From the NCBI GenBank assembly GCA_963727625.1, contig CAVSHR010000004.1, forward strand, positions 896,001 through 960,000: a DNA stretch of 64,000 nt. The letters run 5' to 3'. Under the pieces are notes generated by a model that did not search any database, was not told the DNA's origin, and saw only the letters and a program-made list of their open reading frames with translations. Position numbers and translations under genes: made by a program. This document shows positions 15,339-27,796 of the stretch, one piece after another (the stretch's first letter is position 1; each line of letters opens with the position of its first letter). This DNA comes from an uncultured delta proteobacterium. GTDB lineage: Bacteria; Desulfobacterota; Binatia; UBA9968.

Positions 15339-15812
15339 ATGAAACAAACGATCCATGTCACGGTTAACGGCCGGCTCTACGAAGAAGACGTCGAGCCCCG
15401 TCTACTCTTGGCCCATTTTCTCCGCGAGAAAATCGGTCTCACCGGCACTCACATCGGCTGCGTCGTCGGCGAGTGCGGCGCCTGCTCGGTGCTGCTCGAC
15501 GGTAAAGTGGTGAAATCCTGCCTCCATTTCGCCGTGCAGGCGGACGGCCGGGAAGTCACCACCATCGAAGGGCTCGCGAAAAACGGCGAGCTCAATCCGG
15601 TGCAGGAAGCGTTTGTGAAGAACTATGCATTTCAGTGCGGCTATTGCACGCCGGGCATGGTGATGACGAGCTACGCTCTTTTGCAAACCAATCCCAACCC
15701 GTCGGAAGCGGAGATCCGCAAGGCGCTCGCCGGCAATCTTTGTATGTGCACCGGCTATGTGCAGATCGTCGAAGCGGTCAAAGAAGCGGCAAAGGGAATG
15801 AAAAATGGCTAA
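15339..15812 (+). CDS. (2Fe-2S)-binding subunit (CoxS-like)
   Basis: GCVVGECGAC, QCGYCTPG, NLCMCTGY. Confidence 0.94.
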   Translation: MKQTIHVTVNGRLYEEDVEPRLLLAHFLREKIGLTGTHIGCVVGECGACSVLLDGKVVKSCLHFAVQADGREVTTIEGLAKNGELNPVQEAFVKNYAFQCGYCTPGMVMTSYALLQTNPNPSEAEIRKALAGNLCMCTGYVQIVEAVKEAAKGMKNG

Positions 15813-18231
15813 GTTTGTCGGCAATCGTTCACGAAGCAAAGAAGGTCCGCGACATGTTACGGGCAGAGGGTTATTCACCGACGATTTCACCCTGCCCGGC
15901 ATGCTCCAGGCGATGATCCTGCGCAGCCCCCATGCTCACGCTAAAATTTTGTCCGTCGATCCGGCCGAGGCGCTCAAGAATCCCAACGTCTTTGCCACGA
16001 TCACGCCGGATGATGTCAAGAAAATGACCAAACCCTTCAAACCCGGCCGTTACGCCGCGGGGTTGAAACGTCCCATCGATGAATACGCCGGAGCGGTGGA
16101 CAAAGTCCGCTATGTCGGCGAGCCGCTCGGCGCGGTGGCGGCCAAAGATCGGGGCACGGCGGAAGACGCTCTGGAATTGATCCAAGTCGAGTATGAGCCC
16201 CTCCGCGCCAATGTCGATGTCCATGAAGCGATCAAGCCGTCGTCCGCGGTGCTCTTCGATGAGCTCGGCACCAATCTCGCGTGGACCGGTTCGCTGCAAT
16301 ACGGCGACATCGATGCAGCGTTCCAATCTGCCGACCGAATCGTCAAAGAGAATTTAAAAATTCACCGTTACAGCTCGACGCCGCTCGAACCTTTCGTGGT
16401 CATCGCGTCCTACGACGCGGCGAGCAAGCGCTTGACCGTATGGGTCACGGCGCAAGTGCCGGAAGTGATCTACGACGGACTGCGCGAAACCCTCGGCCTG
16501 CAGGATGTCCGCGTGATCATTCCGGATGTCGGCGGCGGCTTCGGCCAGAAGATTCATCTGATTCGCAAATACGTCATCCTGATTTCGCTGCTGGCGATGA
16601 AAACCGGCCGGCCGGTGAAATGGATCGAAGACCGCACCGAGCATATGATGGCCGGCGGCCACGCTTGCAACCAAGACGTCGAAGCCCAAGCCGCGGTGAA
16701 AAACGACGGCACCGTGCTCGGTCTCAAGTTCAAAGAATACGACGACGTCGGCGGCTCGATCAGCACCCTGACGATCCACTTCACCAACAAGCTCAATAAT
16801 CTGTCGAACACTTACAAAACACCGGCCATATCCATGGAAGGCCACGCGGTGGTGACCAACAAGTGCCCGGTGGTTCCCAACCGCGGCATCGGCAAGCCCG
16901 GCATGTGCTTTATCTGGGAACGGATGATGGACCGGGTCGCCCAGGCGCTTAACTTGAGCCCCATCGAAGTGCGGCGCAAAAATTTGATCCAGGCCGACCA
17001 GATGCCCTACACCACGATCAGCGGCAACGTTTACGACAGCGGCGATTATCCCGGCCTGCTGAAAACGCTCCTGGAAAAAATCGACTACGACAAGCTCCGC
17101 GACGATCAGAAAAAAGCCCGCGCGGAAGGCAAGCTCATGGGCATCGGCGTCGTCATCGGTGTCGAGCCCGGCGGACGCAACGCCGCGCGCGACATGGCGA
17201 TCTTTCCGGAAATGAAAGAGCCGCCCGGCTCCGGCGGCATCAACGGCGCAAAAATCAAACTCGAGAAGAACGGCACGCTCTCGCTCCATCTGGGCTCGCC
17301 CAACTGCGGCCAGGCCCATGAGACCACCACCGCGCAGGTCGCCGCCGAGATTCTCGGCTCGACGCCGGACAGAATCAGCACCAGCATCCCCTTCGATAGC
17401 GATCTGTCTTCGTGGGGCGTGGCGGCGGCCAACAGCGGCAATAATTTTCATCTCTACGACATCGGCGCGATTCACGGCGCGGCCCATAAGCTGCGCGATA
17501 AAATCCTCAAGCTCGCGGCCTACAATCTCAAAGTCGAGCCGTCGGCGTTATCCATCGAAGACAGCGTAGTGAAAGTGCCCGGCGCGCCGGCCAAACAAAT
17601 CACCTTCGCCGAGCTCGGCCGGATCGCCTACAACAACCAGCATCTGATTCCAGACGATATGGAGGCCGGACTGGAGGCGACCCATTACTACACGTTTCCC
17701 CACGCCAAGCCCAATATCGTGCCCGGCGCCGACCGCAGGGTGCGCGCCCAGTTCTCCTTTTCCGCCGGTGCCCACGCGGCCATCGTGGAAGTGGACAAGA
17801 ATACCGGCTCGGTGCATGTGCTGCGCTATCTGATCGTCGGCGACAACGGCGTGGTGATCAATCCGGACGTGGTCAACGGGCAGGTCTACGGCTCCGCCGC
17901 GCACGGTATCGCTGTCGCGCTCGGCGAGGGGTTCATGTACAGCCCGGAAGGGCAGCCGTTGACGATCACTTATCTCGACTACGGCAAATGTTCGACAGCC
18001 GAGACACCGCGGGTCGAGGTCATCCATCAGCCCTCCCCCTCGCCGTTTACGGCGCTGGGGCAGAAGGCCGCCGGCGAAGGCGCGGCGATCCCCTCGCCCG
18101 CCGCCATCGCCAGCGCGGTGGAAGACGCGCTCCAACCGTTCGGCGTGAAAGTTTGCGATCTTCCGATCACACCGGAATCGGTGTGGCGCTTGATCAACCA
18201 CAATCCGGAAAAAGAGCGGAGGACCTTCTAG
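15805..18231 (+). CDS. Xanthine dehydrogenase/CoxL-like molybdopterin subunit
   Basis: LRSPHAHA, DVGGGFGQK, RPVKWIEDR, YDSGDY, GQAHET, KAAGE; no VAYRCSFR, so not form I CODH. Confidence 0.93.
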   Translation: MAKFVGNRSRSKEGPRHVTGRGLFTDDFTLPGMLQAMILRSPHAHAKILSVDPAEALKNPNVFATITPDDVKKMTKPFKPGRYAAGLKRPIDEYAGAVDKVRYVGEPLGAVAAKDRGTAEDALELIQVEYEPLRANVDVHEAIKPSSAVLFDELGTNLAWTGSLQYGDIDAAFQSADRIVKENLKIHRYSSTPLEPFVVIASYDAASKRLTVWVTAQVPEVIYDGLRETLGLQDVRVIIPDVGGGFGQKIHLIRKYVILISLLAMKTGRPVKWIEDRTEHMMAGGHACNQDVEAQAAVKNDGTVLGLKFKEYDDVGGSISTLTIHFTNKLNNLSNTYKTPAISMEGHAVVTNKCPVVPNRGIGKPGMCFIWERMMDRVAQALNLSPIEVRRKNLIQADQMPYTTISGNVYDSGDYPGLLKTLLEKIDYDKLRDDQKKARAEGKLMGIGVVIGVEPGGRNAARDMAIFPEMKEPPGSGGINGAKIKLEKNGTLSLHLGSPNCGQAHETTTAQVAAEILGSTPDRISTSIPFDSDLSSWGVAAANSGNNFHLYDIGAIHGAAHKLRDKILKLAAYNLKVEPSALSIEDSVVKVPGAPAKQITFAELGRIAYNNQHLIPDDMEAGLEATHYYTFPHAKPNIVPGADRRVRAQFSFSAGAHAAIVEVDKNTGSVHVLRYLIVGDNGVVINPDVVNGQVYGSAAHGIAVALGEGFMYSPEGQPLTITYLDYGKCSTAETPRVEVIHQPSPSPFTALGQKAAGEGAAIPSPAAIASAVEDALQPFGVKVCDLPITPESVWRLINHNPEKERRTF

Positions 18232-19089
18232 ATGATTCCCGGTGCTTTCGAATACTATGCGCCCCGCACTTTGAGCGATGCGGTGAGATTCCTCGCCGAC
18301 CATAGAGACGATGTAAAAATACTTTCCGGCGGCCAGAGCCTGCTGCCGCTCATGAAGATGCGCTTGTCCAAGCCCGCTTTTGTCGTCGACATCGGCCGCA
18401 TACCCGGTCTCGACACCATCCAACAGGAAGGCGACGATCTCGTCGTCGGCGCGCTGGTGACCCACGAACAAATCGAGCACTCCGATCTGCTCAAATTGAA
18501 ATGCCCGCTACTGCCTCAGACCGCGACGACCATCGCCGACGTCCAGGTGCGTAACCGCGGCACCATCGGAGGCAGCGTCGCCCACGCCGATCCGGCCGGG
18601 GATTGGCCGGCAACCGTTATGGCGCTGGACGCGGAAATCAAGATCGTCGGGCCCAACGGCGAGCGCTGGATTAAATGCGATGAGTTTTTTCTCGGGTTGC
18701 TCATGAGCGTGCTCGAGCCGGACGAGATCGTCACGGCGATAAAGGTGCCGGTTACCGGCGCGGATAAAACCGCTTATTTAAAAGCCGCGCCGCGCTCTTC
18801 CGGTTTTGCCGTCGTCGGCGTCGCCGTACGACTGGCTCTGGATTCTGCGGGAACTTGCAGTGGCGCTACGGTCGGCATCACCGGCGTCACCGATAAGGCC
18901 TACCGTGCCGACCGCGTCGAACAAATACTTACGGGCAAGAAGCTGGAAGCAGCCGTGATTCAACAAGCAGCTGCCCAAGCCTGCCGCAACATCGAAGTGA
19001 TCGAAGACATCAACGGCTCTTCCGAGTACCGCAAGCACTTGACCGAAGTGTATGTGGCGCGGACTATAGAGACGGCGCTGCGGCGCTAG
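18232..19089 (+). CDS. FAD-binding subunit (CoxM-like)
   Basis: GGQSLLPLMKMR, QVRNRGTIGGS.AHADP. Confidence 0.94.
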   Translation: MIPGAFEYYAPRTLSDAVRFLADHRDDVKILSGGQSLLPLMKMRLSKPAFVVDIGRIPGLDTIQQEGDDLVVGALVTHEQIEHSDLLKLKCPLLPQTATTIADVQVRNRGTIGGSVAHADPAGDWPATVMALDAEIKIVGPNGERWIKCDEFFLGLLMSVLEPDEIVTAIKVPVTGADKTAYLKAAPRSSGFAVVGVAVRLALDSAGTCSGATVGITGVTDKAYRADRVEQILTGKKLEAAVIQQAAAQACRNIEVIEDINGSSEYRKHLTEVYVARTIETALRR

Positions 19090-19170: not shown

Positions 19171-20055
19171 CTAAAGCATCCGTCTCCGTAAATACGAACT
19201 TAGGTAATCCACCAGCGTTACCAGAATATAGATCGCCATGATCAGCGTCAGCAACTGATTTTCGAGAAACAAGCTGATGGCGATATAGATGCGCTGTCCC
19301 AGGCCGCCCGCGCCGACAAAGCCGAGGACGGCGGCGACGCGGATATTCACCTCCCAACGATAAAGCGTGTAAGAAATAAATTGCGGCAGGACCTGCGGCA
19401 CGATCCCGTAGAAAAAAATTTGCAACTTGTTGGCGCCAGTGGCTTGCAGCGATTCGATGGGCTGAGGATCGACGTCCTCCAGAACCTCACCGAACAATTT
19501 GCCGAGCACGCCGCCCGTGTGAACGCCCAGAGCCAAGACACCGGGAAATGGGCCTAAACCGACGAGGAATACAAAAATCAACGCCCAAACCATTTCCGGT
19601 ATCGTGCGCAGGATATTAAGCAAGCTCTTGGCAACTAGGTAGGGCAGGAAACGCAGGCCGCGGCGCCAGCCCTGTTTAGGCTCCATCTCGTATAGCAGTC
19701 CCGAGTAAATCAGATTGCGCGACGCAAAAAAGACCATCGCCAGCGCGATCACCACCGCCATCAGGGTGCCCATGAACGATATTGCGAAGGTCTCGACCGA
19801 GCCCGTGGCCGCTTCGCGCAGAACGGTGGGCGAAAAATCGGGCGGGACGAGCCTCGTCATGTAGATAAGAATCTGCTCGCCGCCATCGCGACTGAAGAGC
19901 TGGGTGAGATCGATGCCGGCACCGCGGTAACTCCACACGAGAAATACCAACATGCCGGCAAGAACCAGCGTGTTGGCGATCTTCGAACTCTTCCCGGATA
20001 CCGCACCCGAGACCGGTATCGTCTCGCAGCTATTGGGATTCATCGGCCGGCTCAT
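19171..20055 (-). CDS. PhnE/PtxC family ABC permease
   Basis: RTIPEMVWALIFV..VGLGP, GVLGKLFGE, YRWEVNIR. Confidence 0.92.
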   Translation of the reverse strand: MSRPMNPNSCETIPVSGAVSGKSSKIANTLVLAGMLVFLVWSYRGAGIDLTQLFSRDGGEQILIYMTRLVPPDFSPTVLREAATGSVETFAISFMGTLMAVVIALAMVFFASRNLIYSGLLYEMEPKQGWRRGLRFLPYLVAKSLLNILRTIPEMVWALIFVFLVGLGPFPGVLALGVHTGGVLGKLFGEVLEDVDPQPIESLQATGANKLQIFFYGIVPQVLPQFISYTLYRWEVNIRVAAVLGFVGAGGLGQRIYIAISLFLENQLLTLIMAIYILVTLVDYLSSYLRRRML

Positions 20056-20906
20056 ATCATCGCGCGCACCTTGGCGCTCACGTAATCGACCGCCGCCACC
20101 ATGACGAACAGAATCATGAGAATCGTCAGCACCTCGTTGAAATTGAACATGCGCATGGAAATCTCAATCTGCTGGCCCAAGCCCCCCGCGCCGACCAGGC
20201 CAAGAATCGCCGACGCGCGCACCGCGCATTCCCAACGGTATAAAGTGTAGGAGACGAAATTTGGCAGGGCTTGGGGAAACCAGCCGTAGAAAAAAATTTG
20301 CAGCTTGTTGGCGCCGACGGCCTGCAGCGCCTCGAGCGGGCGGTGATTGACCGCTTCGAAAATTTCAGAATATACCTTGCCGAGCATACCGCCGTAAGCG
20401 ACACCGATCGCCAGCACGCCCGGAAACGGCCCCAGTCCGACAGCGCGCACGAACATAAATGCCCAGACAAACTCGGGGATACAGCGAAACAGGCTAAGGA
20501 CGCCGCGCGCGAAAGCATAGGCAGCGTAGCGCATCCCCTTGCGCAGCGGCGTTCCCTGCAACTCCGCTTCATTGAGGATGCCCCGAACGGTCAGCGTATT
20601 GGTGCCGAGCAAGCCGAGCGGAAAGCCAATCAGCACGGCGATGAGAATGCCCCAAAAAGAGATTTGAATGGTTTCCAGGGTCGGTCGCAGCATGAGCGAC
20701 AAAAAACTGCCGGAAAGCTCCGGCGGAAACATTCCGGTAATGAATTTTCCCAACGCCGCTCTGCCGCGCGGCTCGAAGAAAATCATCGGATCGACACCAG
20801 CCCGCCGCCAGCTTTCGACCACGGCGAAAATGAAGAGCCCGATAAAAACGTAAGGGAAAAGAGACTTATCCGACTGACGGATAGGCGACTGGACCGATTC
20901 TTTCAC
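20052..20906 (-). CDS. PhnE/PtxC family ABC permease
   Basis: RCIPEFVWA, GMLGKVYSE, YRWECAVR. GTG start at 20906 assumed. Confidence 0.9.
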   Translation of the reverse strand: MKESVQSPIRQSDKSLFPYVFIGLFIFAVVESWRRAGVDPMIFFEPRGRAALGKFITGMFPPELSGSFLSLMLRPTLETIQISFWGILIAVLIGFPLGLLGTNTLTVRGILNEAELQGTPLRKGMRYAAYAFARGVLSLFRCIPEFVWAFMFVRAVGLGPFPGVLAIGVAYGGMLGKVYSEIFEAVNHRPLEALQAVGANKLQIFFYGWFPQALPNFVSYTLYRWECAVRASAILGLVGAGGLGQQIEISMRMFNFNEVLTILMILFVMVAAVDYVSAKVRAMI

Positions 20907-21696
20907 TCGCTCCCTCGACGCTGGAGTGATCGCGGAAATTGCCGGAGTACAAATCCTCGAGCATCGCATCCGTGATCTTGTCAGGCGCGAGATCGAAGGC
21001 TATCTTGCCCGCTTTTATACCAATGACGCGGGGGAAATAGGCCAGGGCCAGGTCGACGCTGTGAAGACTGACGATCAGTGTTTTCGCGGTGTTTTGGCTG
21101 ATTTCGATCAACAACCGAACGATGGTTGTGGCCAGCGTGGGATCGACCGAAGAAACCGGTTCATCGGCGAGAACCACCTCAGGACCTTGCATCAACACCC
21201 GGGCGATCGCGACCCGTTGCTGTTGCCCGCCGGACAGCTCGTCGGTGCGCTCGAAAAGTTTCTCACCGATGCCAACCCGGCTGAGCGCTTCGTGGGCCAG
21301 CGTCACATTCGCAGGTTTCACCAAAGACCACAGCGAACGGAGTGTCGACCAGCCGCCCAGTTGCCCGGCCAGGACGTTGTGAATCACGCGCAGGCGGGGC
21401 ACGAGATTGTGCTGCTGGTATACACTGCCGATAAGACGGCGCGTGCGCCGCAAATCCTTACCGTGCAGCGCTTGTACATCTTCCCCGCTGATCCAGAGCT
21501 TCCCCGAGGTCGGCCTTAACGTACAATTTAGCAGGCGAAACAGTGTAGTCTTACCGGCACCGCTCGGTCCGATCAGAGCGACGCGCTGGCCTTTGGCGAT
21601 CTCAACACTGACGCCATCGAGGGCAACTTGATGGCGGCCAAACAGCTTGCGGACGTTTTCTAAGCGATACTGGAACTTCGATGGCAATGGACTCAC
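20866..21696 (-). CDS. PhnC family ABC ATP-binding protein
   Basis: GPSGAGKTT, LSGGQQQRVAIAR, LADEPVSSVDP. Confidence 0.93.
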   Translation of the reverse strand: MSPLPSKFQYRLENVRKLFGRHQVALDGVSVEIAKGQRVALIGPSGAGKTTLFRLLNCTLRPTSGKLWISGEDVQALHGKDLRRTRRLIGSVYQQHNLVPRLRVIHNVLAGQLGGWSTLRSLWSLVKPANVTLAHEALSRVGIGEKLFERTDELSGGQQQRVAIARVLMQGPEVVLADEPVSSVDPTLATTIVRLLIEISQNTAKTLIVSLHSVDLALAYFPRVIGIKAGKIAFDLAPDKITDAMLEDLYSGNFRDHSSVEGASERIGPVAYPSVG

Positions 21697-21699
21697 GCG

Positions 21700-22557
21700 T
21701 TATTTAAGCAACCCCGCGGCAATCGCCGCTTCTTCGATGCCCTTCCAGTCCGCATCCTTGGCGACGATGTAGCCTTTGGTCCGATGCAGATCGAGAAGTT
21801 TCTTGTCTTTCGGTTTTCTGTAGTCGAGCTTCAAAAACGCCTTGGTAATCTTGTCGACCGTCCCTTTGTCGACTCCGGCGCGCACCATCCAGACATAATC
21901 AACATAAGGAGGAGTCGTCCAGAAAATCACCACCTTTTTGGTGTCCACCTTCTTGGATTGCACCAGCTTGTCCCAAACCAGAAAATTGAGCGCGCCCGCG
22001 TCTACCTGCCCCGCTTCAACCCAAGCCGCGGTGGCGTCATGAGCGCCGCTGAAACTGAACTTGGAAAAATCCTTTTCAGGATTGATTCCGTTCTTAAGCA
22101 GATAATAACGCGGCATGAGATGCCCGGAGGTTGAGCTGACGCTGCCGAAGGCGAAGGTTTTGCCCTTGAGATCCTTCAAAGACTTGATACCGGTTTCTTT
22201 GCGGGTAATGAAATAACTTTTGAATTGCGCGTCCTCTTTGCGCATGATGATGCGGTGCGCTCCTTTGGCCTGTTTCGCTGCTTGGACGGAGGTCAAGCCG
22301 CCGTACCACACCATCTCCAAGCGATTCGCCGCCAGGCCTTCCACCGTCGCGGCGTAATCGACCACAGGGGTGAATTTCACCGGTATCCCGATCTCTTTGG
22401 TCAGATAATCCGCGAACGGCTGGTAAATCCGCAGCATTTCTTGCGGGTTTTCATCCGGGATCGCCGAAATCCGCAGCGCTTTCAAAGCTTGAGCTGAAAC
22501 GTTCTGAGTGAACAGTGCGAGCAGCAGCGCGAAACCCATTGTGAGTGTTTTATTCAT
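21700..22557 (-). CDS. PhnD-like substrate-binding protein, putative selenate-type subfamily
   Basis: Signal peptide; ISAIPDE, DYAATVE, VWYGGLT.VQA, FGS.SSTSGHLMPRY, FSGAHDAT, TPPYVDY.W. The subfamily call is by motif recognition, not a search. Confidence 0.8.
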   Translation of the reverse strand: MNKTLTMGFALLLALFTQNVSAQALKALRISAIPDENPQEMLRIYQPFADYLTKEIGIPVKFTPVVDYAATVEGLAANRLEMVWYGGLTSVQAAKQAKGAHRIIMRKEDAQFKSYFITRKETGIKSLKDLKGKTFAFGSVSSTSGHLMPRYYLLKNGINPEKDFSKFSFSGAHDATAAWVEAGQVDAGALNFLVWDKLVQSKKVDTKKVVIFWTTPPYVDYVWMVRAGVDKGTVDKITKAFLKLDYRKPKDKKLLDLHRTKGYIVAKDADWKGIEEAAIAAGLLK

Positions 22558-22611
22558 CGACAATTCCTCCAAGACTCCATCGACGGTTAATTAAACTTAA
22601 ATAACAAGAAA

Positions 22612-22642
22612 AACTATATGTCAAATAGAATTGATCTATGGA
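22612..22642 (-). promoter_or_regulatory. LysR-type operator overlapping the -35 of the ABC transporter promoter
   Basis: + strand aaCTATatgtcaaATAGaattgatCTATgga; contains TTGACA on the - strand (22619-22624); a second copy of the motif is at 25032-25062. Confidence 0.7.
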
Positions 22643-22729
22643 CCCGGACAAGTCCGGCTTCGCAACCATCGAATTGCCGATTTCAACGGCAGGAAGGGTC
22701 TGAATCCAGTCCAAAGGCGCAGAACGGTG

Positions 22730-23200
22730 CTAAGAATTTTCCCTGAGAAACGCCAAAACTTCTTGGGGATGGGCCTCGGCTTTCTTAACGGCAGGCCAAT
22801 GTTTGACGACTTCGCCCTTCGGTCCGATCACAACGGTGGAACGGATCGTGCCTTCGACTTCTTTGCCGTACATCATCTTCCGTCCCCACGCGCCGTATTT
22901 CTTCATCATTTCGGTTTTCGGGTCCGACAACAAAACGAAGGGCAGCTTGAAACTTTCAACGAACTTGTTATGCGACGCGATGCTGTCCTTGCTCACACCG
23001 AGCACGACAACACCGGACTTTTTCAAGTTCGGTGTCAGATCGCGGAACCCACAGGCTTCTTTGGCGCAGCCCGGGGTGTTGTCCTTGGGATAGAAATACA
23101 ACACCAGAGTCCTGCCCTTGTAATCGTCCAGCGAGTGTTTTTTCCCGTCGTTGCCATCGAGGCTGAACGCCGGCGCTTTTTTGCCTTCAAGATTTTTCAT
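22730..23200 (-). CDS. bcp: BCP/PrxQ peroxiredoxin (Cys form)
   Basis: [33 protein letters not shown]. Confidence 0.93.
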   Translation of the reverse strand: MKNLEGKKAPAFSLDGNDGKKHSLDDYKGRTLVLYFYPKDNTPGCAKEACGFRDLTPNLKKSGVVVLGVSKDSIASHNKFVESFKLPFVLLSDPKTEMMKKYGAWGRKMMYGKEVEGTIRSTVVIGPKGEVVKHWPAVKKAEAHPQEVLAFLRENS

Positions 23201-23337
23201 CGGTATTTAATTCCTCCTCGATGGCTGCCGTAATTTTTCTTAGATAACGGAAATACCCGTCATGCCAACAGAGCCGGCTCGGCGTTGCCTGTCTAAAAGA
23301 GGCTCATCTGAGCCGATCCATGGGACATTCCCGGTGT

Positions 23338-23619
23338 TCATTCGGTCACGTTGACGCCACGCCAAAACGCGACGTAGTTCCTGATTCGCTGTGCCGCCTG
23401 CTTGGGCTCGGGGTAGTACCAGGCGGCGTCTTGATTCAACTGGTCGCCGACCTGCACGTGATAGTAGCTGGCCAGTCCCTTCCATGGGCAGGTCGTGTGC
23501 TTGTCGCTGGGACGAAAAAGGTCTCGCTTCACCGAGTTCGGCGGAAAATAGTGATTGCCCTCCACTTGAAGGGTTTGATCAGACTCTGCCAAGACCGCCC
23601 CGTGCCAAATTGCCTTCAT
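23338..23619 (-). CDS. DUF427 domain protein
   Basis: MKAIWHGAVLAES...VEGNHYFP...CPWKG.ASYY...AAWYYPEPK. Confidence 0.9.
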   Translation of the reverse strand: MKAIWHGAVLAESDQTLQVEGNHYFPPNSVKRDLFRPSDKHTTCPWKGLASYYHVQVGDQLNQDAAWYYPEPKQAAQRIRNYVAFWRGVNVTE

Positions 23620-23648
23620 TTGATTCTCCTCCCAAGGTCCGACGACTG

Positions 23649-25005
23649 CTATGAGACACAGCGAAACTTTGCAAAGACATAGGGATAATGAGCCTGATAC
23701 CAATTGCGGAAGCTTGGCCGCAACAAATTCGCATCCGTCGCCCAGGATGCGCCTTTGAGGACAAAATGCTTGCCGTCGAAAAAATCCCGCGAATAATCCG
23801 GATAGCTTTCAATATAGGATGAAAAGCCTGGAAAGGGCTCAAACGGCGTGTCGGTCAGCTCCCAGCCATTGCCGACCAGTTCGAGCACTCCCCAGCGGCT
23901 CGCTCCCGCCAGGCGGGAGCCAACGGGTAGCGGCGCCCAGGAAAGAAAATCAAAATTACCATGGCGAGCGCCGGGAGCTGAATTGCCCCATGGATGTTCC
24001 GACTTCCGCCCGTCGGGGCCGTAATAGGCCGCGCGGTGAAATTCTGCCTCGGTCGGCAAGCGCTTGCCCGCCCAGCGCGCATAAGCCCGGGCCTCCGCCA
24101 AGCTCACGTATACCGGCCAGCTAGCCGCCTGTTGCAGTGGAAAGCTGTCGAACATCGCACGATAAAACCATGCGCCGTCGCGCTGAAACCAACACGCGGG
24201 ACAGCGCTTTCCTTCGAGATTTTTCCAGCGCCAATCTTCCCGCCGCCAGTGGCGCGCGTCCTGGTAGCCCCCGGATGCGACAAATTCGAAAAACGTCCCC
24301 GTTGCTAACCGGTAGCGAGTCGATTTTGAATGCCGGCACGTCAACGAACCTCTCGTCGAATTCATTGTCCCAACCGAAAGATATCTCGCCGAGTTTTGCG
24401 CCCAACCTTGCGCGACCGGCGGGAATCGTGATGGCGTGCGAAAACGCCGCGGTCTGAAACGAGTACTGAGGCGCGAACTTGGCCCGTCGCTTCCGTGCCG
24501 GCGGCACTCGCTGAAGCATGTAAGCGAGCGTCTCCTGATGCATGTACTCATGCTCCAGGATCATTTGAAACACCCGCCCGTTCTGCGCCATGGGACTGTT
24601 CGATCGCGAGCCGCCGAGCGCTTCCAATGACTCCAAAATCGCCCCACGCACATGATCGCGGTACTCAAGCGTCTCCGCCAGACTCGGCCAGCTCTCCGGC
24701 ACTTCCGGGTGCCAGTGGCATTCCCCTGTGTCCACGTCCGGATCGATACCGCGGCAGAAAAGATCGTCGAAATAGGGATTGAAGGATTTCCAATGGAGCA
24801 AAGCGCCGCAAACCTGGTTCCAGGAAAACGCCGGCAGATGGCCGATATAGAATATAAACGGATGGCGCCAAACGATCGGCTGGGCCTGGATCTCGTCGGC
24901 CGGAAGCATCGCAAAGATTTTATCGGTGCGCGCCCAGGCGGCAAGAAACAGGCCGCGAAGCTCCTCCATCGTGTCAAGCACATTGCGGATAACCGGTAGT
25001 GCCAT
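23649..25005 (-). pseudogene. EgtB/OvoA/SenA-family non-heme iron enzyme (DinB_2 + FGE-sulfatase domains), 1-nt frameshift near 24294
   Basis: N part has RHPFIFYIGH and EHEYMHQET; C part has FVASGGY, EARAYARWAGKRLPTEAEF, GNGWE, KGASWAT, FRNWY. Frames switch at AAC GGG GAC G TTT TTC. Confidence 0.85.
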
Positions 25006-25031
25006 GGCCCCTCCCTTCGTAAATCGTTTTT

Positions 25032-25062
25032 AACTATTTACTAAATAGCTACAGTCTATGGA
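25032..25062 (-). promoter_or_regulatory. LysR-type operator upstream of the EgtB-like gene
   Basis: aaCTATttactaaATAGctacagtCTATgga; same spacing and conserved bases as 22612-22642. Confidence 0.7.
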
Positions 25063-25104
25063 AGAGCGCGAAGAGATTTTTTGGGGGCGACGGAATGAGG
25101 GAAT

Positions 25105-26016
25105 CTAGGCCTGTTTGAGAAACTCTCTGAAGGCTTGCGCGATCGGATGGAGCGGCCGGCGGCGATGATAGACTTCGTAAAATCCCCGTTCCATCTTCAA
25201 GCCGCGAATCGGCACTTCAACGATGCTACCCTCGGCCAGCTCGCGGCGAATGGATATGCGCGACAGAATGGAGATGCCGAAGCCGCCCATCAACGACTCC
25301 TTGACTGCTTCCGTGCTGCCCAGCTCCATCGAAATATGCAGCAACTCGGCTCGCGAGCGCCGCCCCTTGGCAAGCAGCTGATTGATCGAATCAAGGGTTC
25401 CCGAGCCATGCTCCCGCGAAATGAAGTTCTCGCTGTGTAAATCGGCGACCTCGACGAACTCCCGCAGGCACCAGTGATGGCCATGGGGAACCGCGAGTAC
25501 CATCTCATCGTCCCAAATTTTTTTGAAACAGAGTCTTTCATCGCTGCCTTTGAAACCGACAAAGCCAAGCTCGACCTTGCCCTCGAAAACGTCTTCGATG
25601 ATGCCGGACGAATCGCCGATGCGCAGTATCGGTTTCACCGCGGGATATTTTTTCGTGAACGCGCCGAGCTTTTGCGGCAACAGATACTCGCCGGGAATGT
25701 TGCTGCCGCCGATCCAAAGTTCGCCGCTGAGCGTGCCATGAAATTGCTCAACGGCGGCCATGGCTTCGCGTTTGAAGGCAAGCAGGGTTTTAGCCCGTTC
25801 CGCCAAGAGCTGCCCCAACGGAGTCAGGCTGATCCGGCCATGCAGTCGATAAAGCAGCTGGCCGCCGACGGCTTCTTCCAATTCCTGCACATGGGCGCTG
25901 ACCGTGGGCTGGCGCAAATCGAGCAGCTCGGCGGCCTGAGAAAAGCTCCGCATTTCAGCGACCCAGTAGAATATTTCTAGCTTGTGAAGATCTAAATCTG
26001 TTTTGAGCTTGGCCAT
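25105..26016 (-). CDS. LysR family regulator (CysL / selenium-metabolism-associated type)
   Basis: SFSQAAELLDLRQPTVSAHVQELE HTH; IGGSNIPGEYLLP, IGDS, FISREHGSGT, ELGSTEAVK. Confidence 0.88.
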   Translation of the reverse strand: MAKLKTDLDLHKLEIFYWVAEMRSFSQAAELLDLRQPTVSAHVQELEEAVGGQLLYRLHGRISLTPLGQLLAERAKTLLAFKREAMAAVEQFHGTLSGELWIGGSNIPGEYLLPQKLGAFTKKYPAVKPILRIGDSSGIIEDVFEGKVELGFVGFKGSDERLCFKKIWDDEMVLAVPHGHHWCLREFVEVADLHSENFISREHGSGTLDSINQLLAKGRRSRAELLHISMELGSTEAVKESLMGGFGISILSRISIRRELAEGSIVEVPIRGLKMERGFYEVYHRRRPLHPIAQAFREFLKQA

Positions 26017-26073
26017 CGAGATTGGCGCGCGGCGCGGTTTTAATCGAGGAATCGGTCTGCAACAAGAAACCGG

Positions 26074-26125
26074 GGAGCATGGCACGCACTGAACGCGCCA
26101 TGCTCCGCGGCGACAGCGTTGCCGC
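26074..26125. terminator. Two hairpins between the Sec-BCP gene and LysR
   Basis: ggagcatggc...gccatgctcc (10-bp perfect stem) next to gcggcgac-agc-gttgccgc; no clear U-tract. Confidence 0.4.
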
Positions 26126-26592
26126 TACTTGGTTAAAAACTCCAGAACCTCGGCTGGATGCGCGCCGGCATCGGTGACTGGAATCCAATGCTTCTTAATC
26201 GTGCCGTCGGGACCGATCAAGGCCGTCGAGCGAATCGTCCCGTCAGAGACTTCGCCCTGGGCATTCTTGCGCGGCCCCCAGGCTCCGTAGACTTTCATCG
26301 TGTCCTTTTGCTGGTCAGCCAAGAGCACAAACGGAAGGTTAAACTTGCTGATGAATTGATTGTGCGAATCGATGCCATCCGGGCTGACACCCACCACCAC
26401 GGTATTCGCTTTAGTCACGGTATCGATAGCGTCGCGGAACCCGCACGCTTCCTTGGTTCAGCCCGGAGTATCGTCTTTAGGATAAAACCAAAGAATCACA
26501 TTTTTGCCGGCGTAGTCGGCCAGCGAGTGTTGCTTTCCGTCGCTTCCCGCTAGTGTGAACGCCGGCGCTTTTTGTCCTTCAAGTCCTGCCAT
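26125..26592 (-). CDS. Selenocysteine-containing BCP/PrxQ peroxiredoxin (UGA at 26458-26460)
   Basis: ORFs 26458..26649 and 26125..26418 are in one frame: [22 protein letters not shown]. The UGA aligns with the peroxidatic Cys of the paralog; RBS GGAGG; 155 aa with readthrough. Confidence 0.88.
26428..26449 (-). promoter_or_regulatory. Candidate bacterial SECIS hairpin
   Basis: AGCGU-GCGG-GUU-CCGC-G-ACGCU begins 8 nt downstream of the UGA. Confidence 0.6.
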
Positions 26593-26713
26593 TTGCCACC
26601 TCCGTGTATAATTAGATGTCTGGTTTCTATCACACCGAGAAAGTATCAATCAAACATCGAGTAACCAAGAGGCGCATTGTCATCAGCGCCGGTTGCAGCT
26701 ATATTTCCCGAGA

Positions 26714-27796
26714 ATGGCAAAGCAATCGTTACTGACGGAATCGCATCGGCGATCCGGCGCGATCCTGGTCGAAAAGGATGGCTGGCTGTTGCCGGATCAC
26801 TTTGGCGACCCTAGCGCCGAATACGAATCCGTTCGCAGCGCGGCTGGCATATTCGATTTCTCACATCGCGCGCTGCTTCAATTCACGGGGGCGGATCGCG
26901 TGTCCTTTCTCCAGGGCATGTTGTCGAACGACCTCAGGCCGCTGAAAATGTTCGGCGGCCAGCTGGCCGCCGTCTTAACCCAGCAGGGCAAAGTCATCGC
27001 CGACGTCCGTGTGCTGTGCGCCTTGAATTCGCTCTATTTGGACTTCTGGGAGCCGCTCAAAGAGAAAATTACCGCGCATCTCAATCGCTACCTGGTCGCC
27101 GACGAAGTGGAGATCAACGATCCGAACGACCAGTGGAAAATGATTTCTCTGCAAGGACCGCAAGCCCGGAAAATGCTCGACCAGCTCTTGGCCCCTGCGG
27201 ATTTGCCCACCCAGCCTAATCAACATGCGATGGTCCAGTTCGATGGCGCGCCGATCTGCGTCGTGCGCGCCGATCACAGCGGCGAAGGTGGCTTTGACTT
27301 GATTTTGCAGAATGGCCAATTGGACGCTTTCGCTCGGCGGCTCAAGCAACGCGGCGCCTCGTGGGTGGGGGGGCGCGCGCAGAACATTTTGCGCATCGAA
27401 GCCGGTATCCCGCTTTACGGCAGCGACTTCAATGAGGAGAACTTGCTGCTGGAAGTCGGGCTTGAAAATTCCTATAGCTATACCAAAGGCTGTTATCTCG
27501 GCCAGGAAGTCGTCGAGCGCATTCGCTCGCGCGGCCATGTCAACAAAAAACTCTGCGGTCTATTGATCGACGGGGACAAAGCCGCCACACCCGGTGATAA
27601 AATCACGGTAGAACAAAAAGAAATCGGCGTAATCACCAGCTCGGTTGTCTCACCCAGGCTGAATCGTCCCGTGGCGCTGGGCTATATCGGCAAGGAACAT
27701 TGGACCCCGGGGACGGAAGTGTCAATCGAACGCGACGGCGTACCCTGTCACGCGAGCGTGACGGCCTTGCCGTTTCAAAGTTCCAGCTCCTCTTGA
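26714..27796 (+). CDS. YgfZ/GcvT-family folate-binding aminomethyltransferase-like protein
   Basis: G.DRVSFLQG, RIEAGIP, KGCYLGQE. Confidence 0.92.
   Translation: MAKQSLLTESHRRSGAILVEKDGWLLPDHFGDPSAEYESVRSAAGIFDFSHRALLQFTGADRVSFLQGMLSNDLRPLKMFGGQLAAVLTQQGKVIADVRVLCALNSLYLDFWEPLKEKITAHLNRYLVADEVEINDPNDQWKMISLQGPQARKMLDQLLAPADLPTQPNQHAMVQFDGAPICVVRADHSGEGGFDLILQNGQLDAFARRLKQRGASWVGGRAQNILRIEAGIPLYGSDFNEENLLLEVGLENSYSYTKGCYLGQEVVERIRSRGHVNKKLCGLLIDGDKAATPGDKITVEQKEIGVITSSVVSPRLNRPVALGYIGKEHWTPGTEVSIERDGVPCHASVTALPFQSSSSS

Follow-up and report, generated by a model that had tools for sequence, protein, structure and literature searches.

We analysed a 64-kb stretch of DNA (hereafter the window; positions 896,001-960,000 of contig CAVSHR010000004.1, assembly GCA_963727625.1) from an uncultured delta proteobacterium (GTDB Binatia; UBA9968), in which an earlier note had picked out nine co-oriented minus-strand genes, one of them with an in-frame UGA at a catalytic cysteine position, as a co-regulated module for selenium (or sulfur) uptake, selenometabolite synthesis and peroxide defence. 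Open reading frame (ORF) calls, family profile searches and an alignment of the two peroxiredoxin paralogues confirmed that nine genes lie at 19171-26592, all on the minus strand and in the same orientation, and that one carries the UGA at the catalytic position. In the direction of transcription they encode a peroxiredoxin with selenocysteine (Sec), a LysR-family regulator, an EgtB-like sulfoxide synthase, a DUF427 protein, a second peroxiredoxin and an ATP-binding cassette (ABC) transporter. On balance, we read the whole as an island for redox defence, under LysR control, in a soil bacterium that uses selenium, with a diverged cysteine-using enzyme of the EgtB-IV type and an oxyanion importer, and the island is probably a new arrangement of known parts rather than a new selenium pathway. 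Its features are as follows.

26125-26592, minus: PrxQ/BCP peroxiredoxin (Prx1) with Sec at the peroxidatic position (AhpC-TSA 122.7 bits, PrxQ models)
26458-26460, minus: in-frame TGA (Sec codon) of Prx1, aligned with the cysteine of the paralogue
26428-26449, minus: hairpin in Prx1 resembling a selenocysteine insertion sequence (SECIS); it begins 11 nt past the U of the UGA and has 9 pairs in its stem, a single bulge and the loop GUU
26074-26106, minus: terminator-like hairpin of 14 pairs, called strong, directly 3' of the Sec-peroxiredoxin stop codon
25105-26016, minus: LysR-family regulator (HTH_1 and LysR_substrate; NF040786 261.3 bits)
25032-25061, minus: operator 1, CCATAG-N7-CTATTTAGTAAATAG, a LysR-type T-N11-A box plus a downstream ATAG, before the EgtB-like gene
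24298-25005, minus: N-terminal part of the EgtB-IV-like sulfoxide synthase (DinB_2 domain, three iron-binding His)
24297-24300, minus: GGGG run at the frame break of the EgtB-like gene, with one extra base in or beside the run
23649-24296, minus: C-terminal part of the EgtB-IV-like sulfoxide synthase, in the +1 frame (FGE-sulfatase domain)
23338-23619, minus: DUF427 (PF04248) protein (116.1 bits against a Pfam gathering threshold of 22.1), starting 29 nt past the enzyme stop codon
23301-23314, minus: weak terminator-like hairpin after the DUF427 gene
22730-23200, minus: second PrxQ/BCP peroxiredoxin (Prx2), with Cys at the peroxidatic position
22612-22641, minus: operator 2, CCATAG-N7-CTATTTGACATATAG, before phnD
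21700-22572, minus: phnD, periplasmic binding protein of the TIGR04553 subfamily (340.7 bits), with a likely start at the ATG at 22557
20866-21696, minus: phnC, ABC ATPase of the PhnC type (TIGR02315 263.9 bits, cut-off 266.1)
20052-20969, minus: phnE, ABC permease of the PhnE type (TIGR01097 234.6 bits, cut-off 216.7)
19171-20055, minus: second phnE, ABC permease of the PhnE type (TIGR01097 258.0 bits, cut-off 216.7)

Because of the two terminator-like hairpins, the likely transcription units are Prx1, LysR, enzyme-DUF427, Prx2 and phnDCEE. The LysR frame is open from a GTG at 26085, with the ATG at 26016 as its likely start, and a generic promoter scan revealed no sigma-70-like promoter at either operator.

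The TGA of Prx1 stands at the peroxidatic cysteine (PG-U-TKEA-C), with the resolving cysteine five residues on, and the matching site of the Prx2 paralogue reads FYPKDNTPG-C-AKEAC. In related loci (numbered with L below), the Prx1 orthologues have TGA in L014, L017, L029 and L034 and TGC in L013, L015, L016 and L018, and Prx2, a cysteine form in the window, has TGA in L014, L015 and L018. At least one Sec form is present in six of the seven clusters in which both peroxiredoxin genes could be assessed (L013 has none), and the Sec position switches between the two paralogues across genomes. A hairpin beginning 11 nt past the UGA was found in all four UGA-bearing peroxiredoxin genes that were folded and in neither of the two cysteine-bearing ones, and the hairpin stretch is identical in five Sec forms of Prx1 whose flanking synonymous sites vary. 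We likened its shape to what we take to be the SECIS consensus; the fold z-scores of the peroxiredoxin hairpins are not significant by themselves, and positions 26000-26700 gave no Rfam match, including none to a SECIS family. A low-depth soil-metagenome contig spans the Prx1 TGA, with no difference listed. Elsewhere in the genome we found selA, selB and a TGA-containing selD at C5:715112-719466 and tRNA-Sec at C5:768830, and since this machinery is present, Prx1 is, judging from the gene and its genome, a genuine selenoprotein of a known selenoprotein class. The selenoprotein call of the earlier note is thus borne out by selA, selB, selD, tRNA-Sec, the cysteine orthologues and the hairpin 3' of the UGA. 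Nothing essential separates Prx1 from the known bacterial peroxiredoxin selenoproteins (PrxQ/BCP), which share the UGA at the peroxidatic site, the cysteine orthologues, the downstream hairpin and a full Sec machinery; what is unusual is the alternation of Sec between the two paralogues of one island.

The regulator passed NF040786, the model of selenium metabolism-associated LysR proteins, marginally (261.3 bits against a cut-off of 250). This family is common in the phylum, where 96 of 151 genomes hold a match above the cut-off, and the window LysR scores near the bottom of these. A rough scan, in which UGA genes were split and flanks incomplete, covered the ORFs lying up to 1.5 kb from the 30 best NF040786 matches, 92 in all; the most frequent Pfam families were Redoxin/AhpC-TSA (7 ORFs), HGD-D and Creatininase (4 each), Sulf_transp (3) and AIRS (2). 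As these neighbours are most often peroxiredoxin-like, the selenium label of the model may partly reflect adjacency to selenoprotein genes. The window has just two copies of the motif CCATAGA-N6-CTATTT, one at 25043-25061, some 40 nt ahead of the start of the EgtB-like gene, and the other at 22623-22641, some 50 nt ahead of phnD. This count is post hoc, the pattern having been derived from the same two sites. However, the operator that had been proposed for both promoters is real and is supported independently in relatives: the box with its downstream ATAG precedes the EgtB-like gene in L014, L017, L029 and L034, the box lies before Prx1 in L013, where the order is LysR-Prx-enzyme, and a diverged copy precedes phnD in L029. 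Between LysR and Prx1 no operator (allowing at most one mismatch) was found in L015, L016 and L018, and the spacer of L015 holds a different AT-rich palindrome. When the 6.6-Mb genome was scanned with a weight matrix, which is partly circular because the two window sites are among the six from which it was built, these two sites scored 38.8 and 40.3 and the next best site 22.0. With one operator common to them, the enzyme and importer promoters are probably co-regulated.

The gene of the EgtB-like enzyme has one extra base at or beside the GGGG run at 24297-24300, where 15 intact homologues give the consensus LPVTNGxFFEFV. Besides this frame break, the gene has no stop in 451 codons, and all columns that are invariant in a 16-row alignment are kept. 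A read-through protein was made by reading AGCA, a unique site, as serine, which gives S-T-G-T where the native protein probably has S-N-G-x; reading GGGG as glycine or GACG as aspartate was rejected, as both codes matched other in-frame sites and gave a nonsense product. The read-through product has more than 8000 matches among database proteins; the listed ones, 120 in number, have no interruption, lengths of 418-462 residues and identities of 67-79%. Programmed frameshifting was rejected as unlikely, because all of these listed homologues are continuous proteins of some 450 residues, and the frameshift would be either an assembly error or a recent pseudogene.

The read-through protein scored below all three curated models, namely OvoA N-terminal TIGR04344 (248.4 vs 400), EgtB TIGR03440 (233.1 vs 360) and SenA NF041186 (228.5 vs 420), and reached 43.6 on the SenA C-terminal signature TIGR04373 (cut-off 71), on which the true SenA of this genome scores 95.9. 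It consists of DinB_2 and FGE-sulfatase domains only, with no C-terminal methyltransferase as in OvoA. Against solved structures it matched EgtB-IV best (8vih, 193.2 bits; 8vig, 178.9 bits), followed by mycobacterial EgtB (4x8b, 170.3 bits), OvoA (8khq, 149.8 bits), OvsA (110.7 bits), SenA (102.4 bits) and EgtB-II (88.3 bits); the 8vih match spans residues 12-450 with 439 aligned and, at 193 bits, is distant. The corresponding residues of the window enzyme are R47, Y53, H56, D88, H152, M155, H156, Y401, Y404, N434, W435 and Y436. As given in the accessible part of PMC11030361, the composite motifs are RxYH--DxHxHYxNWFx for EgtB-IV and xNEH--HRHxHYYN(F/Y)(F/Y)R for SenA. In our own mapping of the 17 positions, made from pairwise alignments without the published figure, the mappable EgtB-IV positions agree except for the last aromatic one, where Y436 stands against F. 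By this alignment the donor residues R..Y..D match the cysteine type found in OvoA and EgtB-IV and not the N-E..H-R of SenA/OvsA, and N434-W435 would be the N-W pair of the hercynine acceptors. The suggestion that the enzyme is SenA-like did not hold, as it fails both the SenA model and the signature and has EgtB-IV as its nearest solved relative. With EgtB-IV, the OvoA-derived branch represented by 8vih and 8vig, it shares the two domains without methyltransferase and, by the same mapping, the R, Y, 3-His, D, Y and N-W residues, but its triad is N-W-Y instead of N-W-F and it has an extra conserved Cys84. C84 and Y436 mark the subclade described below, and C96 is common to it and its sister group. 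A search of the accessible literature found no assay of any member of this subclade.

In a genome scan, relatives of the enzyme turned up at no fewer than 584 loci, 80 of which were kept for comparison. In 65 of these 80 loci the enzyme gene has an EgtD homologue as its neighbour, about 300 nt away or less (3/3 checked pass the EgtD cut-off), and the queries run on the 80 loci gave no SenB hit in any of them. The ten loci most like the window (L013-L019, L029, L034 and L044) have no adjacent EgtD, and nine of them, all but L019, have peroxiredoxin and LysR genes beside the enzyme; no EgtD is adjacent in the window or in these nine loci, nor does SenB or SelD lie next to the enzyme in the nine. 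In a tree of 78 rows, which left out L017 and L044 (truncated) and L029 and L034 (frame breaks) and used the genome's own SenA as the outgroup, the six rows with the Prx/LysR context formed one clade with a stem length of 0.40 and a support of 100 in the Shimodaira-Hasegawa-like approximate likelihood ratio test (SH-aLRT), nested in the EgtD-adjacent family beside a group of Rokubacteria, Methylomirabilota and Verrucomicrobia (support 97). The window enzyme belongs to a derived monophyletic subclade that lost egtD adjacency. Unlike EgtB-IV genes, which are usually egtD-adjacent, members of this subclade stand beside LysR, two PrxQ genes, DUF427 and a cytoplasmic PhnD-like protein.

The conserved core of the island comprises LysR, Prx1, the enzyme, Prx2 and a PhnD-like protein of 266 residues that lacks a signal peptide. 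This last protein, in which the STS and D-Y pocket residues are replaced, is encoded in L013, L014, L015, L016, L018, L029 and L034 (e.g. L014:11680-12480), between the enzyme or DUF427 gene and Prx2, and no counterpart was found across the genome of the window, where the best match has 24% identity. DUF427 occupies the same position in the window, L013, L014, L029 and L034, and also follows the enzyme-EgtD pair in seven acidobacterial loci (L036, L063 and L083-L087). This recurrence in Acidobacteriota suggests that DUF427 is tied to the enzyme family also where EgtD is present. The sole PDB match of DUF427 is 3djm, an uncharacterised protein; as a lead only, the accessible part of a 2015 fold analysis places DUF427 in the beta-tent fold with MsrB (PMC4287342). 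In the accessible part of Abbott et al. (JACS 2026, PMC13674229), the genes within 5 kb of non-haem iron sulfoxide synthase (NHISS) enzymes include DUF427 (5.7%), PhnE (3.1%) and ABC_peri_selen (3.1%), which were not followed up there, and the words 'peroxiredoxin' and 'LysR' were not found in its main text so far as accessible. Judged by the island genes, the nearest relatives are metagenome-assembled genomes (MAGs) that go under the labels Syntrophobacter sp., delta proteobacterium, Thermodesulfobacteriota and Binatia. The synteny expected of the module was thus recovered in part, as the order Prx-LysR-enzyme-(DUF427)-Prx recurs in nine related loci, but the full transporter does so in few.

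Outside the island, the plus strand at 15805-19089 encodes the large subunit of a molybdenum hydroxylase (808 aa) together with a CoxM-type FAD subunit, convergent on the phnE end, and an 808-aa ORF is also close to the island in L014 (15344-17770); a link to selenium-dependent Mo hydroxylases is conceivable. On the other side, a GcvT/YgfZ-type folate-binding aminomethyltransferase homologue at 26693-27796 (plus strand) is divergent from the Sec-peroxiredoxin, likewise in L014 (7253-8347).

A real frameshift would open the possibility, which we take seriously though with less than even confidence, that the biosynthetic arm is a decaying remnant, in which case the enzyme gene would be a pseudogene and function would persist in the peroxiredoxins and the importer alone. 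The single-nucleotide insertion in the enzyme gene speaks for this, as does the lack of any counterpart in this genome to the cytoplasmic PhnD-like gene of seven related loci. Moreover, ten ORFs from window regions with suspicious adjacent ORFs were checked, and the five with Pfam matches had full-length domains and no sign of a split gene; the assembly here is therefore not obviously indel-ridden. However, both halves of the enzyme gene are intact and keep the invariant residues, a pattern consistent with a mistake in the assembly or with something that happened very recently, and the break touches a homopolymer. The enzyme gene is also frame-broken in L029 and L034, both from long-contig MAG records, and L029 has further breaks in its LysR and Prx2 genes, all of which look like sequencing or assembly indel errors. 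Contigs from the three sequencing runs listed for this stretch, all DNA and each with a small share of it (0.06-0.09), do not span 24297-24300, and no RNA run was listed. Given the frame break and the missing PhnD-like gene, the biosynthetic arm may be inactive in this strain.

The binding protein of the importer was predicted to be of the selenate type, and it passed TIGR04553 (putative selenate ABC transporter binding protein, a 'hypoth_equivalog' model) by 90 bits (340.7 vs 250) and failed the PhnD equivalog TIGR03431 (196.8 vs 261.1). Its closest solved relatives are the picocyanobacterial PhnD1 proteins 7s6g (204.2 bits) and 5lq5 (182.6 bits). The accessible part of PMC10284923 names 11 residues of MITS9220 PhnD1 as phosphate-binding or pocket-closing, and in our alignment against it all 11 are kept (D11, Y44, T65, S123-S124-T125-S126, H156, N174, D203 and Y204); according to the same source, PhnD1 proteins bind phosphite more tightly than phosphate or methylphosphonate, and the words selenite and selenate are absent from its main text. 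To the extent that the PhnD1/PhnDCE system is described there, the window importer shares with it the fold, the family, the 11 pocket residues and the phnD-phnC-phnE order, but differs in being labelled by NCBIfam as a putative selenate binder, in having two phnE genes and in sharing a LysR-type operator with a thioimidazole-type enzyme. The predicted ligand that agrees best with this is an oxyanion with three oxygens, for example selenite or phosphite.

These likenesses make it conceivable, if rather doubtful, that the importer is an ordinary PhnD1-type phosphite/phosphate transporter with no role in selenium, recruited by chance or for phosphorus supply. Apart from the solved relatives, the conserved pocket and the phosphite preference of PhnD1, such a reading draws on the attachment of the importer to the cluster in only two of eight loci and on a search of the accessible literature that found no experimental work on TIGR04553 or on selenate transport by its family. 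Against it, phnD has the same operator as the enzyme, here and in diverged form in L029, which argues for functional recruitment, and the binding protein falls clearly within TIGR04553 and outside the PhnD equivalog. In addition, putative selenate transporter genes lie near many sen clusters, according to the accessible part of 10.1101/2022.04.13.486033, and selenite has the same three-oxygen geometry as phosphite.

The earlier note had concluded from the lack of SenB, SelD and EgtD in the window that the substrate or product could be new. The lack holds for the window but not for the genome, in which selA, selB, selD, tRNA-Sec and senB were all found, together with an egtD-like gene just below the cut-off. 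A senA gene (482.6 vs 420) adjoins senB (401.7 vs 300) at C11:371327-373740 (senB at C11:371327-372256; the pair at L099:9289-11740, minus), and there is no second selD beside the pair, the only strong selD being that of the selA-selB-selD operon on C5. The senA-senB pair is flanked by a GlcNAcase-like gene, an AmpG-type major facilitator superfamily transporter and an ACR3 arsenite efflux gene. The egtD-like gene (287.1 vs a cut-off of 290.9) lies at about 398.4-399.4 kb of C11. It is divergent from a ProV-type ABC ATPase and a 519-residue fused permease/betaine-type binding protein (C11 about 398.4-401.8 kb; L100:6373-9787), an arrangement that, we presume, resembles the EgtUV ergothioneine importer. 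Among the five other genomes with the subclade cluster, four have EgtD (above the cut-off in three, divided between contig ends in the other) and the same four have SenB, and a TGA-containing selD is present in all five, or six counting the genome of the window. That partner genes are missing from 64 kb says little in favour of new chemistry, and with the partners located elsewhere, the SenA model failed and the donor residues of the cysteine type, the proposal of a new substrate or product on these grounds is not supported.

What remains of the earlier reading, in which the enzyme forms a C-Se bond within a selenium regulon that joins uptake and peroxide defence to the making of a selenometabolite other than selenoneine, appears quite improbable. 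The selenium-labelled families TIGR04553 and NF040786 agree with it, as do the Sec-peroxiredoxins in 6/7 assessable clusters, the TGA-containing selD of all six cluster genomes, the operator common to enzyme and importer promoters, the long subclade stem with its NWY triad and extra Cys, and one genome, G151, which has the cluster and in which EgtD was not found. The enzyme, however, falls far short of the SenA model and of TIGR04373, and its donor residues R, Y and D are those of OvoA/EgtB-IV; no SenB or SelD is adjacent in the nine related loci, and no SenB occurs in the 80; the genome has a dedicated senA-senB pair elsewhere; and the NF040786 neighbours are most often peroxiredoxin-like, with Sulf_transp and AIRS less frequent. 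Compared with the senABC cluster (SenA NF041186, SenB TIGR04348, SenC/SelD), the island shares the non-haem-iron superfamily, a selenium-using organism and a nearby putative selenate-type binding protein, the last as in a subset of sen clusters in the accessible literature, but it differs in the failed SenA model and signature, the lack of SenB/SelD neighbours and the cysteine-type donor residues. There is an equally slim chance that the subclade, with its N-W-Y triad and extra Cys, makes a non-ergothioneine thio- or seleno-imidazole together with DUF427 and the cytoplasmic PhnD-like protein, possibly with selenocysteine or a selenite-derived donor in the cysteine pocket. If true, C-Se bonds would have a third route, one that does without SenB, and a LysR that senses selenium or peroxide would turn it on along with a selenite importer.

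For the redox-defence island that we favour, the following model can be proposed. LysR would bind the ATAG-N7-CTAT boxes and switch the enzyme operon and the importer together on a redox or selenium signal. The enzyme would couple O2, cysteine and hercynine, the last supplied through the egtD-like gene elsewhere, to give the sulfoxide precursor of an ergothioneine-type 2-thioimidazole antioxidant; selenoneine would be made in parallel through the separate senA-senB pair. The importer would bring in an oxyanion with three oxygens; as selenite or selenate, this would supply the selenoproteins and SenAB, while the importer's nearest characterised relatives bind phosphite or phosphate. Several findings weigh against this model. 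The EgtB-like gene is broken in this assembly, and the LysR protein clears its model by 11 bits only. The genome-wide matrix scan found no box before either peroxiredoxin gene, selA-selB-selD or senA, so that one regulon for the whole island is at most a possibility, and because of this absence the detectable regulon in this genome is, as far as the predicted boxes go, two promoters. The full phnDCEE set is attached in only two of eight assessable loci (the window and L029), and DUF427 is missing from L015, L016 and L018, three of the eight assessable loci of the subclade. In G151, the genome of L013, neither EgtD nor SenB was found, the completeness of this genome not being established, and in G153 and G154 the distance from EgtD to senB is no more than a few kb, so that EgtD may serve selenoneine only. 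Finally, C84, Y436 and the long stem branch suggest that the substrate may differ from that of EgtB-IV. Of the module originally proposed, the Sec-peroxiredoxin, the family labels, the synteny and the shared operator stand, and the new selenium chemistry drawn from missing partner genes is not supported; co-regulation is probable for the enzyme and importer promoters, and no box was found before the peroxiredoxin genes of this genome.

The thio- and seleno-imidazole antioxidants ergothioneine, ovothiol, selenoneine and ovoselenol are products of one enzyme superfamily, whose uncharacterised branches are mined for new chemistry. The island defines one such branch, monophyletic and uncharacterised, which stands away from egtD, between two peroxiredoxins of which usually one has Sec, and together with a LysR regulator and a recognisable operator. 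The branch is found in soil Thermodesulfobacteriota-like and Binatia MAGs, and most of these genomes also carry senB, the marker of the selenoneine pathway. The island is a candidate for regulated, stress-linked thioimidazole synthesis, and it offers a putative operator-regulator pair and poses the question of selenite versus phosphite for the TIGR04553/PhnD1 pocket. Together, the subclade and its island make a reasonable target for enzymology.

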